25,331 nt of DNA from IMG/VR virus record IMGVR_UViG_3300036822_000086; one strand, given 5' to 3'. The translations under genes and the position numbers were made by a program. The notes beneath the pieces were generated by a model that saw nothing but the letters and a program-made list of their open reading frames with translations, was not told the DNA's origin and made no database searches. This document shows positions 2,618-12,805 of the stretch, piece by piece (positions within the stretch are counted from its first letter, which is position 1; the number at the start of each line of letters is the position of its first letter). Source of the stretch: an uncultured virus (IMG/VR IMGVR_UViG_3300036822_000086). Taxonomy: Duplodnaviria; Heunggongvirae; Uroviricota; Caudoviricetes.

Positions 2618-3130
2618 TCAAGCGGCGATCAAGGCGAGATCGGAGTTGGCGATCAGTACGTCGGTCTTGCGTCCGAGGAAGTCGAGCAGCACGCGAGCCC
2701 GTTCGTGTGGGCGCATGTTGGCGATGACGCCGGCATGGCCTTGGAACGGACCTTTGAGAATTTGCACCTGAGAGTTGGGACCGAGAACTGCTTTTGGTTT
2801 TGGCAGGACGATAATTCCGTCGTCGCCTTCGCGTTGGCGTAGATCGTGGATCACGCGATTGGGCAAGCAATCGGGCTCGCTACCGCGCATGACGATTCCG
2901 ACAATTCCGAAAGTTGAGAGCAGGACGCGCCAGCGATCGGCGAGGACGAACATGTAGCTCGGAAACAGCGGTCGAGCGACGGAGAGTTTCTGATCGTTGA
3001 AGGTCACGCGTTCGAGGATTTTCGGCAAGTAGCACTCGAATTTTTGCGCGGTGGCATTTTCCAGAGCCCAGTTTTCCCGACCGCCACGCGTGCGCACAAC
3101 GATCCAACGTTTTGTGGCTTGCCCGACCAT
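2618..3130 (-). CDS. NusG-family transcription antiterminator, RfaH-like (NGN + KOW)
   Basis: RWIVVRT..GRE, ECYLP, RPLFPSYMFV, STFGIVGIV; KOW motif VQILKGPFQG and RARVLLDFLGR. Confidence 0.92.
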   Translation of the reverse strand: MVGQATKRWIVVRTRGGRENWALENATAQKFECYLPKILERVTFNDQKLSVARPLFPSYMFVLADRWRVLLSTFGIVGIVMRGSEPDCLPNRVIHDLRQREGDDGIIVLPKPKAVLGPNSQVQILKGPFQGHAGVIANMRPHERARVLLDFLGRKTDVLIANSDLALIAA

Positions 3131-3220
3131 GAACGCGATTTCTGACGCAGGACTACAATCCGAGTCAAGAGTTTGCCGACAATTGGCTTAACTTTTCTCT
3201 GGAAGTGCAACCGAGCGGGA

Positions 3221-3465
3221 AGCCCCAATTTTCGCCTCGGCGCCACCAGTCACTTTGCCGCCCCGCCGCCCTCCCCCTATTTTCTAACGTCAGGTGTATG
3301 AAAATGGGGGGAGGGCGTTTCCCCCCTTTTCTTACCCTTACGTTAGTAAGGGGCGGAAAAGTGAATGGGGGCGCCTCGTGGCCGACTTGTTGCTCCCCGC
3401 TTTTCCCCGGTTTTTGCGGAAGAATGGGGGAAGGAAGAATAGGGGTCAAAACAATGGGGGAGGCG
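3221..3465. repeat. Origin-like tract of AAT(G/A)GGGG repeats and dyads
   Basis: 18-bp inverted repeat 3267-3284/3300-3317 (17/18), dyad CCCTTAC-GTTA-GTAAGGG 3335-3352, further motif copies near 3364, 3423, 3438 and 3453; no credible ORF. Confidence 0.6.
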
Positions 3466-3604
3466 GCACAACCGAAAACGACGCGGCTCGCGTATGGGTG
3501 CATGTGGATCAAATGGTGAAATGCGTTGACGGTCTACGCCGAGACGCTGACACTTTCGCAATCTCTAGCCGACAGAATCAGCCGAGCAGCGGAGGGCGCG
3601 CACC

Positions 3605-4678
3605 ATGCCACGAGCCGAGACACAAGCCGCGTTACGCGGGCTGGTCAACGAGACTGAACAGCACAAGCCCAAGCGCAGCAAGGTCGAGATCATCGCGCCG
3701 AGCGTCGGCAAAGGCAATGCCATGACGCGCGAGCAATGGGCTGGCCGCCTCAACGGCGAATGGGAGGCAACGAAAGACAACGCTGTCGAAGGGTTCTTCG
3801 AACTCGGCCAGAGCCTTCTGTTGTGCAGGGGGCAAATCAAGGGTGGCGAATGGCTCGACATGGTCACCAATGATCTACATTTCAACCAAAACGTTACAAA
3901 CAAATTGATGCGTATCGGAAAGTGGCAAAACCGTCGCAATGCGACGCTTTTACCTATCATGGGTAAGTTTCCGCCAGACTACACTACCCTTGATATACTC
4001 TCGCGTCTTCATGAGAAGTTCCCGGAAGTATTTGATCGCTTGCTCGATGACGGCACAATCTGCCCAAGCTTGCAACGCAACGAAATCTCGAAAATTCTGC
4101 GGCTAGAGCGTGTCGCCGAAGACGAGCAACGCATTCTCAACCTCGCACCGATCGCGGGCAAGTTCCGCACGCTCGTATTTGATCCGGCTTGGGAATATGA
4201 CTGGTTGTCGCTGGCTGGCCGCGCCAAACCGGGCTATGCGATGCAATCGCTCGATCAGTTGCGTGCGCTTGATATCAAACAATGGGCTGATCAAGAAGTT
4301 GGTTGTCATCTATATGTTTGGACGACCAACAACTTCATGGTCGAGGCCTGCAAGTTGATTGTGCATTGGGGGTTTCAGTATCGCACAGCGATCACGTGGG
4401 TTAAGCCGCCGCCGTTTGGGCTCGGTAGTTATTTCCGTAATTCAACTGAACATGTGCTGTTCGCAACGCTAGGCGATACCACCACGCGGCCAGCCGCCGC
4501 AAGCATGGCAACAGATTTTCGAGCGCCGCGCGGCGAGCATTCGGAAAAGCCGGAATGTTTCTACGACATCGTGCGCGCGGCCAGTTACCCGCCATATGGT
4601 GAGGGCAATCAACGCGAACCGCGACCGGACTTCACCAATCTATTTGAAGAGGTTGCGATCACGGAGGCGGCCGAATGA
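3605..4678 (+). CDS. MT-A70 family N6-adenine methyltransferase with DUF3102-like N-terminal domain
   Basis: FRTLVFDPAW, HLYVWTTN, WGFQYRTAITWVK, GLGSYFRNSTEHVLFA, HSEKP; GGAGG RBS. Confidence 0.9.
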   Translation: MPRAETQAALRGLVNETEQHKPKRSKVEIIAPSVGKGNAMTREQWAGRLNGEWEATKDNAVEGFFELGQSLLLCRGQIKGGEWLDMVTNDLHFNQNVTNKLMRIGKWQNRRNATLLPIMGKFPPDYTTLDILSRLHEKFPEVFDRLLDDGTICPSLQRNEISKILRLERVAEDEQRILNLAPIAGKFRTLVFDPAWEYDWLSLAGRAKPGYAMQSLDQLRALDIKQWADQEVGCHLYVWTTNNFMVEACKLIVHWGFQYRTAITWVKPPPFGLGSYFRNSTEHVLFATLGDTTTRPAAASMATDFRAPRGEHSEKPECFYDIVRAASYPPYGEGNQREPRPDFTNLFEEVAITEAAE

Positions 4679-4899
4679 CGGAAGAAGAACGCATCGAGTG
4701 GGAAGCTGACAAATACAAATACTTTGGCCCCGATCCAAATCCTGTTATTGAGGCGGCTTTGATGAAGCACCACTTGGCATATCGCGAATACGCAAAACGA
4801 CCAACCCCAGAAAATTCAGAAGCATTCATGCGAACATCGCAAGAATTGCAAGATATAGTTCAGCTTAGTCAATGGCAGCCGCCGAGTGAAAAACAGTGA
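4675..4899 (+). CDS. Hypothetical protein
   Basis: ATGA overlap with the methylase stop; GGAGG RBS. Confidence 0.75.
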   Translation: MTEEERIEWEADKYKYFGPDPNPVIEAALMKHHLAYREYAKRPTPENSEAFMRTSQELQDIVQLSQWQPPSEKQ

Positions 4900-4909
4900 A
4901 TGAGTTGCT

Positions 4910-5548
4910 TTAGACCAGACGCGTCACGCTACCGTCTGGATTGAACCGCAACTCTGGTTTTCCCCATAAACTGCTTTGCAGCCCGCCAACATCAACACGG
5001 AAACCTTCGATTCTGAGATCACGACAAACTTTCTGAATTGGTGTTTTAAGGCAACGCGTCCATAAAGCTCGGCCACCAATCATATTTTCGATGTCGGTCA
5101 CCACAAGCGCCGCGCGATGTTTATGGACCCAAGCACGCCATCGCTTGAGCGGCAGTGGCCAACAATTGACTGATGTTTGATCCAATGAAGCTTGCGCCCA
5201 CAAAACCATATCAGCCGTGCTGGCAATACCCCAGCCCTGCGCTTCCTGACCGGGAATGGTGCATGACATTTCTTCAAACAAAAAATCCTGCCAATGCGAA
5301 TATCTCGGTTCTCCGTTGGGCAAACGCGGGAACCGCACGCATTTCCAATCAATACCTAATACTCCGTTCAACAATTGCATCGCTAGATCAACATGCGCTT
5401 TGCGCTGTACTAATTGAGCAAACTGAGAATTACCACGGAATTCCACCAGACCGGTGCCGCGTTTTGACCATTGTGGCAGCACATCGCCGAGCAGTTTTTC
5501 GTACATCTCCCAAGACCAAGCGTCGTCGTATTCGAATTGATTCACCAT
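4910..5548 (-). CDS. Putative PD-(D/E)xK restriction-endonuclease-fold protein
   Basis: Q..HVD...GIDWK...DFLFEEMS...GW...AD pattern; start moved to ATG 5548 (AAGGA RBS). The CDS is secure, the fold call is tentative. Confidence 0.6.
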   Translation of the reverse strand: MVNQFEYDDAWSWEMYEKLLGDVLPQWSKRGTGLVEFRGNSQFAQLVQRKAHVDLAMQLLNGVLGIDWKCVRFPRLPNGEPRYSHWQDFLFEEMSCTIPGQEAQGWGIASTADMVLWAQASLDQTSVNCWPLPLKRWRAWVHKHRAALVVTDIENMIGGRALWTRCLKTPIQKVCRDLRIEGFRVDVGGLQSSLWGKPELRFNPDGSVTRLV

Positions 5549-5606
5549 TTTATCCTTTGATAGTTTGCGGTAATACTGAGCAGCGCCGACTGATCGTCCG
5601 ATAGAA

Positions 5607-5676
5607 GGGGCGGGGGCATGTAGGCCCACGCGGTGATTTGCAGTCACCGCGCCCGGCGATCAGGACCGGCCGCCCC
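5607..5676 (-). ncRNA. Cloverleaf (four-way junction) structured RNA, tRNA-like but non-canonical
   Basis: GGGGCGG / CCGGT-CCTGATC-GCCGG / G-CGCGGTGA-CTGCAAA-TCACCGCG-T / GGGC-CTACAT-GCCC / CCGCCCC; G-U pairs favour the minus strand. Confidence 0.55.
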
Positions 5677-5765
5677 GACATCGGCGCGCCGCGCAGTGCG
5701 AAAGCGGACACCACGCGAGCCGACTGCGGGCTGTTATTTGTTACGCGCCACCTGCCCGCCGGGCG

Positions 5766-6134
5766 CTATGGCTGCGTGGCCATAACCCTACGTCTTGCTT
5801 GCACTCTGATGATAGGCACGTAAATGAACGCAAAGGCTTTTTTCTGCTGCCAGCGCGCCCGGCACGGCTGAAACAAAAACCAACTACAATTCCGTTTTGG
5901 ATAATCCCATTCGTAGGGATCATCACCGCAGCGTTTGTACCAAATCTCACTTAGGCGCGGAGCGCGTTGCTCGCTGTTTTCTGGTTCAACATACAACTCC
6001 ACCTGCTCACCATATAACTTCACCATCTCATCGCTCCAGTCCATGTAATTGATCAATACGCGCGAGGGCAAAAACGGGATGGCAAAAAATTCCTCCCAAC
6101 TCAAATGATAGCGCGGAAATTCTTCGATCCGCAT
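5766..6134 (-). CDS. Hypothetical protein (aromatic-rich)
   Basis: AGGA RBS, collinear with the operon. Confidence 0.7.
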   Translation of the reverse strand: MRIEEFPRYHLSWEEFFAIPFLPSRVLINYMDWSDEMVKLYGEQVELYVEPENSEQRAPRLSEIWYKRCGDDPYEWDYPKRNCSWFLFQPCRARWQQKKAFAFIYVPIIRVQARRRVMATQP

Positions 6135-6152
6135 CGTTGTCTATCCTAATCG

Positions 6153-6533
6153 TTAACGTGTTGACCGCCGTTTGGTTTGCTGATCCATCGCCTTGCGGAT
6201 GTCCTCGCTAGTCAGGCGATAGAATTTGTCCAATCTCATCAACTCACGTTGTGCGACTTTCAGCGGGCCGAGATCGACGTCGATCTCATTGAGATCAGCG
6301 AACAGTTTGAACCGTTCGACCGCGCCGGCACGGCCATAGCCGATCACATAGACTTGCTGGCGCTCAAACTGATCGAATTGCACGCGGCAACGATGCGTGC
6401 GCTTGACCGCGTCGATGATGCCATAGCGTCGCGTTTGCAGCGGGCCAAGCTCGGCATTGAGCGCCATCAGTTCGCGCGAGTTGGTGGCCCAGTCGGCCTT
6501 CAGGTCTTCGAGTTGTTGCAGTAGATCGGACAT
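6153..6533 (-). CDS. Hypothetical coiled-coil protein
   Basis: Heptad-like Leu pattern; 3-nt gap to the upstream gene. Confidence 0.75.
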   Translation of the reverse strand: MSDLLQQLEDLKADWATNSRELMALNAELGPLQTRRYGIIDAVKRTHRCRVQFDQFERQQVYVIGYGRAGAVERFKLFADLNEIDVDLGPLKVAQRELMRLDKFYRLTSEDIRKAMDQQTKRRSTR

Positions 6534-7075: not shown

Positions 7076-7501
7076 CTATGATCGGCGCTGGCGCGGCTTA
7101 CCCAAAAAATCTGGGGCGAAAAAATAATGTCGTGGAGCCCATTTGTGCGGATCGCGCCGCTGCCTGAAAATAGGATACGGAGCGGACATCCACACTTCGG
7201 GTCTGTTGATTGCGACGCGGCAAAATAAGTTTCCAAGAAACAACGCGGCACGTTCTTCGTCACAGCCTGAAGCATCAAACAACGGGCCGAGAACCACCGG
7301 CCACGGGTTTTGACAATTCAACGTGACGCAGACACGGTTGATCCGATTGATTGCATGCGCGTCGAAAAACGTGTTGATGTGAGTATAGACGTCCATGACG
7401 TTTCCGCCATAGCGATGCAATGTGCTAATCTGCGCGTTCGTTAGATCAGGGAACCAGTCCGTCTTCAGAAAATCCATTTTTGTTGTGCACCAGTGACTCA
7501 T
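7076..7501 (-). CDS. Hypothetical protein
   Basis: ATG 7501 overlaps the methylase stop; GGAGG upstream. Confidence 0.7.
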   Translation of the reverse strand: MSHWCTTKMDFLKTDWFPDLTNAQISTLHRYGGNVMDVYTHINTFFDAHAINRINRVCVTLNCQNPWPVVLGPLFDASGCDEERAALFLGNLFCRVAINRPEVWMSAPYPIFRQRRDPHKWAPRHYFFAPDFLGKPRQRRS

Positions 7502-7992
7502 TGGGTTCCTCCAACTTTTACGCTCAAACACAAGCCTAGTCCGCAGCGCTGTAGCGCGTTGTTGGCGACTTCGCCCATTCCCAACAGCACGATGCCATGC
7601 CCAGGCGCGCGCCCGATCGAGCCATCGGGCCGAACGAATTTGGTTTTGCCTTTTGGGAACAGCATTATTTCAGCTTTGGTCGCATATTCATGAAACCACG
7701 CCGCCGATGTATAGGCTCTAACGATGGCGACGCCGTTGCCGTGATCGAGAAATCTTTGCAGCCATGGCACATGCCCATTGCGCCCACCGAATGGCGGGTT
7801 CATGAACACGAGCCCACGCCATTTACGGTGCAAGCCATCGTCAGCTTGCGTATAGACGCGACGAGCGGGAACCCAATGATCGCGGCCGGGCGAGCACGGA
7901 TCGAGATCGAACTTCAATCCGAGCGCGGTAAAAATTTCCGGCGGCGTGTACCATTCATCGCTGGCACCAACGCAAGGCTCGTGCAGACTCAT
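7498..7992 (-). CDS. Phage N6-adenine DNA methyltransferase (phage Dam family)
   Basis: DEWYTP, FDLDPC, DDGL...W.GLVFMNPPF catalytic motif, AWFH. Confidence 0.92.
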   Translation of the reverse strand: MSLHEPCVGASDEWYTPPEIFTALGLKFDLDPCSPGRDHWVPARRVYTQADDGLHRKWRGLVFMNPPFGGRNGHVPWLQRFLDHGNGVAIVRAYTSAAWFHEYATKAEIMLFPKGKTKFVRPDGSIGRAPGHGIVLLGMGEVANNALQRCGLGLCLSVKVGGTQ

Positions 7993-10725: not shown

Positions 10726-11060
10726 CAGTGCACCTGTTCCTGATCGCTAGGCTCGCTGCTCGCCTTGGGGCGGTTCTTCTGCGGATCAAACACGTCGATC
10801 ATCTTATCGAACGCCAGCCTGATCCCGGCCACCGGACATCGACGCAAGAATATGCTGTCAAGCATGCTCGCCACTAGCGTCAGCATGATCGCGCGCGGGA
10901 CCACCAAGTCATAGCCGCGCAGCGCGGCGCCCAAGTCGGCCACCGCATTGTCAGCCGCGATCTTACGCGATTCGGTTTCCGGCCAGCGCGCCAATTCGAC
11001 CAAAGCTTCCGACGCATCGTGCACCAATTCCGTCATCGAAGCATTGCGCCGCGTCTTCAT
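10725..11060 (-). CDS. Hypothetical protein
   Basis: ATGA overlap; GGAGG RBS. Confidence 0.75.
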   Translation of the reverse strand: MKTRRNASMTELVHDASEALVELARWPETESRKIAADNAVADLGAALRGYDLVVPRAIMLTLVASMLDSIFLRRCPVAGIRLAFDKMIDVFDPQKNRPKASSEPSDQEQVH

Positions 11061-12805
11061 CGTTTCTGTCCTCCGAATCCTTGGTTCATTTTGTTGATCA
11101 GGAATTTGCCGAACTTCTCGTTGTCCATGGACCGATCATCGGCACGCTGCCTGCCAAGCGCATGCTCGGCGCCGATGGTCATGTCAACCATATGAAAATG
11201 ATCCTTGCCGGGCACCGTGATCTCGACGTTGTAACCGGCCCATGTGAACTTCTTCATCCCACTGAAGTAGGTCTTCACTGGCGTGCCATTCTTGCGCACG
11301 TGCGCGCGCACCATGCGCAGCACCGGACGGCGCCTGCCCTTTGTCGTCACCGCCACGTCGCGATCCCTGAAGAAGTGCGCCATGCGCCGGGCTTCGACGC
11401 CGAACGTTGCGGTCAGTAGTCCCTTATGCACGGCGACGCGCACGATCGAGCCAAGTGACGCCGATTCGTACAGATTGGCAGCGTTGATGAACAACCGGCG
11501 CAGATAGTCTTCCGGCTCGATCCCGCTCAGATCGCGATGTGACCACGACAAATAACGATCCGGCACTTCCCAGTGCGTGTTGATGAATTCAGCCGGTTCC
11601 AGGCATTTGCCGCCATACGGGCCCTTCGACCATTTGATGGTGATCTTCTCGTGTAGCTTGGTCTTCAAAATCCGCACGCGTCCGGTGTTGTGCTCGACAA
11701 ATACGCCGTACTCTTGCGGAACGCCGCCGCGCCGCTTCTGCGCCTGCTTGTGGATTTTCTTGTCATTCCGATCCCAATACACGGTCATGTAGTAGGTATC
11801 GCCGCCGCTCACCCGCTCGAACGCCGGATGCGGCTTGCTCATTTTGCGGAAGTATAGAAAACGCGGCGTCCAAATAACGTGCGGCTTGTCTTCGGTGCGC
11901 TTGTCGAATTTGCGTGACGCGTCGCCAAAGTAGACCGGACGATGACCCATGGCCCCTTCGGCCTTCAATCGCTTTTCAACGTCGTTATACTCATACGCTG
12001 GTCCCGGTTCGGCGCTGTCCTGCACCGTCCACCTGTCTTCGCTTGCAGCGATATCATCGAACCCATAGGCGATGGCACCAAAGCCAGGACGATGCTGGCG
12101 CCACCACGGTGATAGCTCGACGCTCTCGCTGCCGCCGAGCCACTTGTCGAAATTGTGCGTGGCCGACCACGGGACCATCTGAATCCCAATCTGATGCAGC
12201 AAGTCATAACTGTCGCGATCGCCGATCTTCATCCGCTTCAGATAGACCCAAAAGACATCGAGTTGATCGAGGATCGCGTCGCGGAAGTAATACTGACCCC
12301 ATTGCTCGGGATCGTCGGTCAGTACCGGCGCCTGTGGTCTTGGCTGGCGCGGCTTGGCTGGCTCGGTCCGATGCAGCACCGTGCGCTTGACCGGGCTCGG
12401 CGCAATGTCGGCCGGTTTCGGCGTGACCCACTTTTCTTTGCGATAGGCCGGTAACCGGAAAACCGGCGCCAGCAACGACGCTGGCACCGGCTCGGGCGCT
12501 GGCGGTGACGCAGACGATGACGAAGGCGGTGACGTAGACGTTGGCGAAGGCGATGACGATGACGTTGGCGCTGGCTCTGGCGTCGACGTGGGCGTTGGCG
12601 CTGGCGTAAGCGTTGGCGTGGGCGCAGACGGCGGCGAAGGCGCCGACGAAGGCATGGACGTTGACGGAGGCGTTGCCGGGGCATCCTGCCACGGCCCCGG
12701 CCACTCGCCAAGCAGCCTGAACCCCACATGGCGTGCACGCGCCCGCCATTCACTCCAAAGCCTGCTTGCAGATCGTAGCAGCCGATCCAAGAACGCCATA
12801 AACAT
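11057..12805 (-). CDS. Large hypothetical protein with Pro/Ser/Thr-rich linker and C-terminal VRAHxR motif
   Basis: 582-aa ORF, GGAG RBS, directly downstream of the helicase. Confidence 0.85.
   Translation of the reverse strand: MFMAFLDRLLRSASRLWSEWRARARHVGFRLLGEWPGPWQDAPATPPSTSMPSSAPSPPSAPTPTLTPAPTPTSTPEPAPTSSSSPSPTSTSPPSSSSASPPAPEPVPASLLAPVFRLPAYRKEKWVTPKPADIAPSPVKRTVLHRTEPAKPRQPRPQAPVLTDDPEQWGQYYFRDAILDQLDVFWVYLKRMKIGDRDSYDLLHQIGIQMVPWSATHNFDKWLGGSESVELSPWWRQHRPGFGAIAYGFDDIAASEDRWTVQDSAEPGPAYEYNDVEKRLKAEGAMGHRPVYFGDASRKFDKRTEDKPHVIWTPRFLYFRKMSKPHPAFERVSGGDTYYMTVYWDRNDKKIHKQAQKRRGGVPQEYGVFVEHNTGRVRILKTKLHEKITIKWSKGPYGGKCLEPAEFINTHWEVPDRYLSWSHRDLSGIEPEDYLRRLFINAANLYESASLGSIVRVAVHKGLLTATFGVEARRMAHFFRDRDVAVTTKGRRRPVLRMVRAHVRKNGTPVKTYFSGMKKFTWAGYNVEITVPGKDHFHMVDMTIGAEHALGRQRADDRSMDNEKFGKFLINKMNQGFGGQKR
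12475..12678 (-). repeat. Degenerate hexamer array (CGYCNN) x34 encoding the P/S/T linker
   Basis: Strict 6-nt phase; 30 of 34 units start with CG. Confidence 0.8.

Follow-up and report, generated by a model that had tools for sequence, protein, structure and literature searches.

A conserved non-coding unit of soil phages combines a likely Proteo-phage-1 pseudoknot with an undescribed cloverleaf RNA domain

Introduction

Why a phage should carry a cloverleaf of tRNA size, one arm of which ends in what looks like a cysteine anticodon, is the question raised by a short minus-strand segment (5676-5607) of the DNA analysed here (the window, 25,331 nucleotides at its full length). The CU-GCA-AA pattern of the loop is one which we take to be that of tRNA-Cys. 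The initial annotation had considered a tRNA mimic or anticodon decoy, a relative of the C4/CI antisense RNAs, and a cis-regulator or antitoxin of the nuclease-like gene downstream. The window is part of a phage genome, with genes for a YqaJ exonuclease, a helicase, a Cro-like protein, a methyltransferase, a NusG-like protein and an HNH protein.

Results

The cloverleaf and its resemblance to tRNA-Cys

RNAfold predicts a perfect four-way junction at 5607..5676 (minus strand), with helices of 7, 5, 9 and 4 bp and zero unpaired junction bases, at -42.3 kcal/mol (z -3.46; 0 of 200 shuffles were equally good). The 7 bp closing stem (5676-5670 / 5613-5607) encloses arm 1 (5669-5653; 5 bp, loop CCUGAUC), arm 2 (5652-5628; 9 bp, loop CUGCAAA at 5643-5637) and arm 3 (5627-5614; 4 bp, loop CUACAU), which reproduces exactly the fold described earlier, including the 8-9 bp arm capped by CUGCAAA. 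The lengthening of the closing stem by its CCGAU/AUCGG flanks, likewise described before, also forms in RNAfold, and the extension stem (5684-5679 / 5603-5598, thus 5598..5684 on the minus strand), found both by RNAfold and in a related phage, bears the cloverleaf across a small internal loop.

This junction is the sole perfect one on the minus strand of the whole window. Block-shuffled window sequence (861,254 nt) contained 32 perfect four-way junctions by chance; all helices reached at least 4 bp in four of these, and one of the four was at -40 kcal/mol or better, a chance level of about 0.06-0.24 such junctions per two-stranded window. The fold taken alone is thus just modestly above chance, and its support is its retention in relatives. 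As the plus strand folds equally well in the window (-43.8, z -3.96), the window alone cannot fix the strand, which is fixed by the related phage copy described below.

With tRNA-Cys (RF00005) the element shares its overall size, a 7 bp closing stem, three arms and, in the window copy, the 7-nt CU-GCA-AA loop; it differs in having no linker bases, D-loop, T-loop or CCA, in a middle stem of 8-9 bp, and in a loop that is not kept. Neither GUUCRA of the T-loop, GG of the D-loop nor a 3' CCA occurs in the three loops (CCUGAUC, CUGCAAA, CUACAU) or the tail UUCU, and the lack of GTTC and CCA had already been recorded. ARAGORN and the Rfam tRNA models had been suggested as a check, and neither calls the element: ARAGORN reports 0 tRNA genes in the window and, with its score relaxed so far that 25 other places are called, still misses the element, and Rfam, including RF00005, gives no match to the cloverleaf up to E 10.

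A conserved 7-nt anticodon loop that starts with a pyrimidine and U and sits on a 5 bp stem is not what is found here, as the stem has 8-9 bp and the loop varies. In the related phage the arm 2 loop has nine bases, AAUGCAAAA, beginning AAU, versus the seven (CUGCAAA) of the window, and the anticodon-loop geometry is lost both there and in contigs from three of the four soil runs compared. The tRNA-Cys-like loop is probably incidental, and the idea of a tRNA-Cys mimic or anticodon decoy is not upheld, because the first loop base and the loop size both differ in relatives and ARAGORN makes no call.

A 173-nt unit shared with a related phage

The nearest related phage record found, G001, carries a copy at G001:78811-78983 that matches 5770-5598 of the window with 92.5% identity and no gaps (13 changes in 173 nt), while the flanks, 3479-5597 and 5771-6185, have no counterpart in G001. 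The match begins 4 nt ahead of the first helix of a pseudoknot and ends with the last base of the extension stem. It delimits a conserved non-coding unit (5598..5770, minus strand) that consists of the pseudoknot, a hairpin, and the cloverleaf on its extension stem. Coding blocks shared by the two phages are 77-99% identical, and the 92.5% of the unit is not above these values. The middle hairpin (5690..5717, minus strand; 10 bp with an 8-nt loop) folds in both copies, with z values of -1.1 and -2.0 that are weak alone, and its single substitution between the copies lies in the loop.

Within cloverleaf and extension stem, 29 of 30 pairs are retained in G001 despite 10 substitutions (59 of 60 pair cells over the two copies). 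One pair is changed on both sides and five on one side, a loop-closing pair opens, and a G-U pair of the extension stem in the window is G-C in G001; of eight changes at paired positions, seven still pair in G001. With two sequences the shuffle control of the pairing tool is powerless (284/500). Retention of pairs has p 0.005 against a uniform-substitution null; when substitution types are matched, p is 0.33 from the window to G001 and 0.018 in the reverse direction.

RNA of the sense strand of G001 forms the same cloverleaf (-37.3, z -2.1), and folding of this copy yields no cloverleaf from the opposite strand, nor from either strand as DNA. Since the G001 copy folds solely as sense RNA, the strand is fixed as minus and the result points to RNA, which backs the earlier assignment of a structured RNA to this strand. 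The unit is an RNA-level element and not a tRNA.

Coding cannot explain the conserved block, as in each of the six frames of the unit 7-9 of 10-11 codon changes are non-synonymous, and the downstream protein has five relatives that begin where its ATG at 5548 does. Translation through the element of an extended reading frame (4910..5647), which the initial annotation had named as a potential refutation, therefore does not account for it, its homologues starting at the ATG at 5548 and no frame being under coding constraint. Two further coding candidates were rejected: read-through of an upstream UAG is ruled out by the same codon changes, and an upstream reading frame from the AUG of arm 3 has 25 codons in the window versus 8 in G001 and shows no coding constraint. 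The unit is non-coding and is kept as a block while the genes on either side get swapped.

A pseudoknot of the Proteo-phage-1 type

The initial annotation overlooked a pseudoknot that lies 50-90 nt upstream of the cloverleaf and travels with it. This is an H-type pseudoknot (5724..5766, minus strand), in which P1 joins 5766-5763 with 5748-5745 (5 bp in G001) and P2 joins 5759-5754 with 5731-5726; the pseudoknot model further comprises GUG at 5751-5749, then an A-rich linker, and a closing AG. Its assignment to Proteo-phage-1 (RF03044) draws on weak matches to the Rfam model (13.0 and 16.1 bits for the two copies in relaxed scans, below the gathering cut-off of 42) and on a score for the two helices. 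As printed, the Rfam model contains zero P2 pairs; its GCCGG and CCGGC are mutually complementary, and the unit has GCGGG and CCCGC, so that an H-type pseudoknot with an A-rich linker results. The original description of Proteo-phage-1 may already show the pseudoknot.

A degenerate pattern run over the genome collection found 56 loci. Among 20 of these scanned with RF03044, seven held eight matches above the cut-off, and six more scanned loci included L050 (87.7 bits), L097 (61.3) and L067 (29.3, below the cut-off). In ten copies excluding the unit, 92 of 100 two-helix cells pair and 0 of 500 shuffles reached as high, a figure that relatedness of the copies can inflate. For P2, 59 of 60 cells pair in 12 sequences that include the unit copies, the middle pair being C-G in eight and G-C in three.

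A nested-only model built without the unit gave the window site 14.5 bits, the third of 24 matches in 85 kb (E 0.13), which by itself is not significant; in L019 the unit site was the best of 12 matches. A two-helix score trained on the 11 other copies put the window (29.2 bits) and G001 (33.2 bits) sites well ahead of all others, while a 44.3 Mb null contained none at 22 bits or more, and training on the nine copies above the Rfam cut-off gave 24.9 and 29.3 bits, with none at 22 bits or more in 26.1 Mb, the training copies having been gathered with a pattern written to fit the unit too. The pseudoknot of the unit is, by these comparisons, likely to be homologous to the core of Proteo-phage-1.

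Unit and motif agree in the order and spacing of a 5 bp core stem, GCSGG, three bases, GUG, an A-rich linker and CCSGC with AG (CCSGCAG), together with P2 complementarity, and also in their phage location near the boundary of early and late genes. The GCGGG/CCCGC pair, the three-base first loop and the AAUAAC linker of the unit recur in L097, a full member of the family. Unlike Proteo-phage-1, the unit has neither the GAUaA bases nor the 5' hairpin that precedes the core (a deletion in the alignment of the window, only loosely aligned in G001), and scores only 13-16 bits. The cloverleaf domain accompanies no other Proteo-phage-1 copy examined. RF03044 had 0 matches above cut-off in 151 genomes of the order of G002, and the pseudoknot pattern had one match in 401 genomes of the class.

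In both annotated phages inspected, Proteo-phage-1 lies just ahead of lysis or terminase genes. In the Pseudomonas phage phiAH14a it follows ninG and one further gene, is ahead of the terminase block, and overlaps an annotated hypothetical gene on the opposite strand; in phage Solano a hypothetical gene lies on one side of it and the endolysin, lysis and terminase genes on the other. Other copies, among those listed, lie amid short genes that by eye resemble early operons. Promoter-like sites were found by script before the motif in L097 (10/12) and G001 (9/12); a stricter tool scan found none in G001, and neither scan finds one in the window. A hairpin with U-tract occurs within 300 nt in six of the 11 other copies and in neither unit copy, as judged by a crude filter without control.

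Several other loci show additional structure around the motif. In the Pseudomonas prophage copies L031, L034, L050, L086 and L101, the 150 nt past the motif contain conserved hairpins and a terminator-like stem before lysis genes, and L050 has an isrJ-like match (E 0.08) about 520 nt upstream of the motif. In L097 (2955-3260) the Proteo-phage-1 member is behind a near-consensus promoter and is followed by a long hairpin and then by a tandemly repeated unit of leader plus gene start.

A predicted alternative fold by strand invasion

One strand of the pseudoknot (5757..5766, minus strand; inverted repeat I1) is perfectly complementary to cloverleaf positions 5658-5649. The invading duplex is 10 bp long in the window and 11 bp in G001. 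Shuffle tests of the length of the complementary run gave p 0.004-0.035, and those of duplex energy p 0.01-0.41 depending on region and test, the two copies not being independent.

The unit can thus be modelled in two states, for which the energies are rough. State A, with pseudoknot, hairpin and cloverleaf, is at -87 to -92 kcal/mol, and state B, in which 5766-5757 pairs into arms 1 and 2 of the cloverleaf, is at -94.2 kcal/mol in the window and -90.6 in G001. In the energy model these are mutually exclusive folds of similar energy. For the whole unit, the invaded form has the lowest energy in the window but not in G001. State B may be a chance product of G+C-rich sequence. An anti-pseudoknot switch common to the whole family was rejected, as the invading complement was seen in 0 of the 11 other pseudoknot copies (lowest p 0.09).

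Soil variants and searches for further copies

Contigs from four of 11 listed soil DNA runs (X3, X4, X5, X6) were compared; no RNA run was listed as containing the unit, which carries no information on expression. Position 5643 has A in place of C in contigs of X3, X4 and X6; contigs of the window form occur in X3 and X5, and another change, at 5649, is compatible with G-U pairing. One contig end from X5 (a single contig, depth 2.7) suggests a different loop 1, with changes at three places and the arm 1 stem kept. The contigs diverge from the window at 5599 (into a flank of the G001 type), 5584 and 5578, which gives at least three kinds of downstream flank. Beyond the ends at 5584 and 5578 (X4, X5, X6) the continuing sequence looks mutually related and could form another hairpin. 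Going by these sequences, an ancestral unit may have been longer, and cargo genes may have shortened it both in the window and in G001.

Exact-pattern searches of viral contigs for further cloverleaf copies returned G001 only, the remaining matches being unrelated on inspection. In metagenome contigs all four matches sit inside unrelated genes; annotated phages and plasmids gave nothing beyond short matches, and of 401 genomes of the order of G002, 115 had matches, of 69 nt at most and with E values no better than 6.8e-5. No cloverleaf was added by model R1, run on 38 sources and three genomes. Related loci sought through the nuclease protein were none, and through the RfaH-like protein only the G001 record. 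The unit is single copy in the window and in G001, which eliminates a multi-copy repeat or MITE. Searches that fell short of most subscription journals found no paper on Proteo-phage-1/RF03044 or on such a cloverleaf.

Neighbouring genes

The gene downstream of the unit (4910..5548, minus strand) encodes a 212-aa PD-(D/E)XK nuclease-like protein, as indicated by a conserved motif and a weak fold likeness. In 22 aligned relatives (of 119 found) D54, K69 and E92 are invariant, with a D67-x-K69 motif. Weak likeness is to RecU, SfiI and BglI (Z 4.0-4.4), the best match having Z 4.4 and rmsd 4.2 over 108 residues for a model of pLDDT 60.6, which is weak; the single-sequence model had pLDDT 35.6. 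Foldseek found nothing at E 0.001, Pfam called no family and none of PADLOC type, and leads from the ESM Atlas point to PD-(D/E)XK families. The 119 relatives make up an unnamed PD-(D/E)XK-like family (P0001) that has no Pfam model and conserves an S-C-T...G-W motif. In G001 the gene is missing by tblastn and by profile. As G001 lacks the gene and soil contigs leave the window sequence at 5599, 5584 and 5578, the nuclease gene is a swappable cargo.

Upstream is a 122-aa reading frame of no known family (5766..6134, minus strand), whose UAG stop codon at 5768-5766 includes the first base of P1; in G001 it is replaced by a divergent gene and a promoter-like site. No terminator directly follows the cloverleaf in the window or G001. 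Further downstream, a terminator-like hairpin (3306..3326, both strands, a consensus match) lies between the unit and an RfaH/NusG-like antiterminator gene (2618..3130, minus strand; Pfam NusG, E 6.5e-12; phrog_6386), which an HNH gene follows, and has a counterpart in G001 at L002:2140-2157 that is a consensus match only. The region around it (3214-3401) is a long imperfect hairpin just upstream of the RfaH-like gene, with a terminator-like core of a G-run and C-run and sub-threshold Rfam matches to mir-627 and Dictyoglomi-1; it is rearranged yet present in G001. The RfaH/NusG paralogue is 99% identical in G001 and occupies the place of Q in lambdoid phages.

In G001 the RfaH/NusG-like and HNH genes are followed by tail-fibre and head genes on the same strand, and in the window a convergent operon (3605-4899) is found between the unit and the RfaH-like gene. 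Plasmid genes annotated as RfaH/NusG match the protein at 30-33%, the best plasmid matches being rhizobial. These sequence matches are a weak hint at the host, which is probably an alphaproteobacterium.

Two methyltransferase genes, 3605-4678 (plus strand; MT-A70 type with an N-terminal extension) and 7498-7992 (minus strand; Dam type), flank the variable region in which the RNA and the nuclease-like gene lie, and neither was matched in G001 at this place. At 11057-12805 (minus strand) a 582-aa protein without Pfam or PHROG family contains a repeat tract rich in Pro, Ser and Thr, with related tracts at other places in G001.

Discussion

A leader RNA as the favoured reading

The unit is a variant of a known phage RNA motif joined to an undescribed cloverleaf domain. 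Of several possible explanations we favour, with a probability of about 0.45, that soil phages carry a modular structured leader RNA which acts in cis and has the cloverleaf as its 3' domain. For this count the coincidence of the ends of the conserved block with those of the structure, the pairs kept, the folding of the G001 copy as sense RNA only, the homology of the pseudoknot, and the terminator-like hairpin before the RfaH-like gene in both phages. Against it count the small number of full copies (only two, closely related), the lack of a terminator after the cloverleaf in either phage and of a promoter-like site ahead of the unit in the window, the convergent operon (3605-4899) that intervenes before the RfaH-like gene in the window, and the fact that this cloverleaf is beside no other pseudoknot copy, with the invading complement likewise in 0 of 11 elsewhere. 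The cis-regulator proposed earlier is in this sense retained, while its link to the nuclease fails with the absence of that gene from G001.

The function that we infer is the following. In the nascent transcript the pseudoknot would fold first and sequester the strand 5766-5757, and the cloverleaf would then form. If the pseudoknot were blocked, either because a ribosome halts at the UAG overlapping P1 or because a partner is lacking, state B would result. The fold state might then set whether the transcript runs into, or survives for, the cargo, RfaH-like and late genes, either by antitermination or by protection from decay. Since the UAG of the window overlaps the first base of P1, translation could tip the balance of folds there; G001 is without that reading frame.

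Antiterminators of the put type achieve protein-free terminator read-through via binding to RNA polymerase. PMC9378689 describes HK022 put as a phage-leader structure of about 70 nt that acts in cis on read-through, and in this possible way of working the unit would be similar. Compared by structure description, put is two stem-loops with a short triple helix, versus an H-type pseudoknot and a four-way junction in the unit. A further likeness is to the IsrK leader of Gifsy-1, for which PMC4825925 reports two near-isoenergetic prophage-leader folds and, ultimately, control of an antiterminator; the unit also has two near-isoenergetic folds. Unlike IsrK, it has no Rfam match and no conserved coupled leader peptide (arm 3 AUG, 25 versus 8 codons).

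Alternative explanations

The conserved block might instead be a stand-alone stable ncRNA, from the pseudoknot to the end of the stem, that binds a protein or small molecule in trans. The agreement between block ends and structure ends while gene neighbours change on either side would suit such an RNA, as would the filing of Proteo-phage-1 as a small RNA gene in Rfam and the constancy of loop 3 and of UGCAAA in loop 2 across all variants seen. With 13 changes in 173 nt, however, a 6-nt stretch is by our own arithmetic expected to stay unchanged about 6 times in 10, and neither phage has a terminator at the 3' end; we consider this reading unlikely. Its special case of a tRNA-Cys anticodon decoy is very improbable, as anticodon-loop geometry is lost in relatives and D-loop, T-loop and CCA are lacking.

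Also doubtful, and slightly less well placed, is an antisense RNA in the manner of C4 and CI, in which the cloverleaf would be cut from the leader as a stable small RNA and would then pair in trans with newly made transcripts at their pseudoknot strand, and in some variants with a downstream site too, leading to termination or silencing and hence to immunity. RNAs of this kind are released from a precursor by RNase P and have single-stranded a' and b' segments whose complementary targets lie upstream and downstream. According to PMC5320573, C4 is an RNA of about 77 nt with three stem-loops, cut from a precursor, and the 70-87 nt multi-arm fold on a long stem resembles it; P4 CI RNA has an upstream complement, seqA, according to PMC4825925. 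Like C4 (P1/P7) and CI (P4), clan CL00128, the unit is a small multi-arm RNA in a phage transcript with an upstream complement (10-11 bp), and because this complement exists a C4/CI-like way of working is conceivable. Unlike them, it has four helices without a single-stranded junction, its complement spans stems and junction rather than mainly loops, and no adjoining icd, kil or antirepressor gene was identified. A 7-nt downstream complement of loop 1 (5596-5590) occurs in the window and is missing in G001, so that the downstream target is not conserved. Furthermore, loop 2 does not co-vary with the unchanged upstream GCAGUC, one contig (depth 2.7) suggests that loop 1 was altered at three places with stems kept, and there is no 3' CCA-like end. 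Kinship with C4, as proposed in the initial annotation, finds no backing in Rfam, whose C4-clan models do not match the element; a 16-nt fragment of c4-a1b1 is matched (E 7.9) at a different place in L002, on the opposite strand.

It is rather improbable that only the pseudoknot is functional and the cloverleaf hitch-hikes along as a chance or weakly selected G+C-rich fold. Such junctions do arise by chance (0.06-0.24 per window), the type-matched null gives p 0.33 in one direction, unit identity is not above that of neighbouring coding blocks (77-99%), and the cloverleaf was not found beside other pseudoknot copies. Yet homology continues for 126 nt past the pseudoknot, to the very last base of the extension stem, seven of eight changes at paired positions keep pairing, and folding is asymmetric both between strands and between RNA and DNA.

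RNA antitoxins of the type III kind have a fixed linkage to the toxin gene and are usually tandem repeats. That the element serves the nuclease-like protein as RNA antitoxin or as substrate, or is a DNA cruciform which this protein recognises, is extremely improbable: RNA and gene do adjoin in the window and the best fold matches of the protein include the four-way-junction resolvases RecU (Z 4.4) and Hjc (Z 2.8), both weak, but the unit is single copy, G001 keeps the RNA without the gene and forms no DNA cloverleaf on either strand, and other soil variants run into other sequence (at least three downstream flank kinds), so that the antitoxin of the initial annotation is not supported.

Implications

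For Proteo-phage-1 as a whole a wider reading is speculative and, in our estimation, unlikely: the pseudoknot would be a widespread protein-free phage control element, here with the junction as a switchable output that gates cargo and RfaH-like activator. In proteobacterial phages, where it would sit in promoter-proximal leaders and in those of late genes, it would then be either a ligand-sensing switch or a second class of RNA antiterminator.

At the locus itself, the lesson is that an anticodon-like loop within a cloverleaf can arise by coincidence. An orphan Rfam motif can now be tested as a pseudoknot, one backed by compensatory change, and is seen to recur in phage leaders, often just ahead of lysis and head genes. 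New is a four-way-junction domain, undescribed so far, that has an alternative fold built in. If the unit does not control read-through, it joins the conserved phage RNAs whose role is unknown; if it does, the RNA-only transcription controls of phages, at present very few, would gain one.
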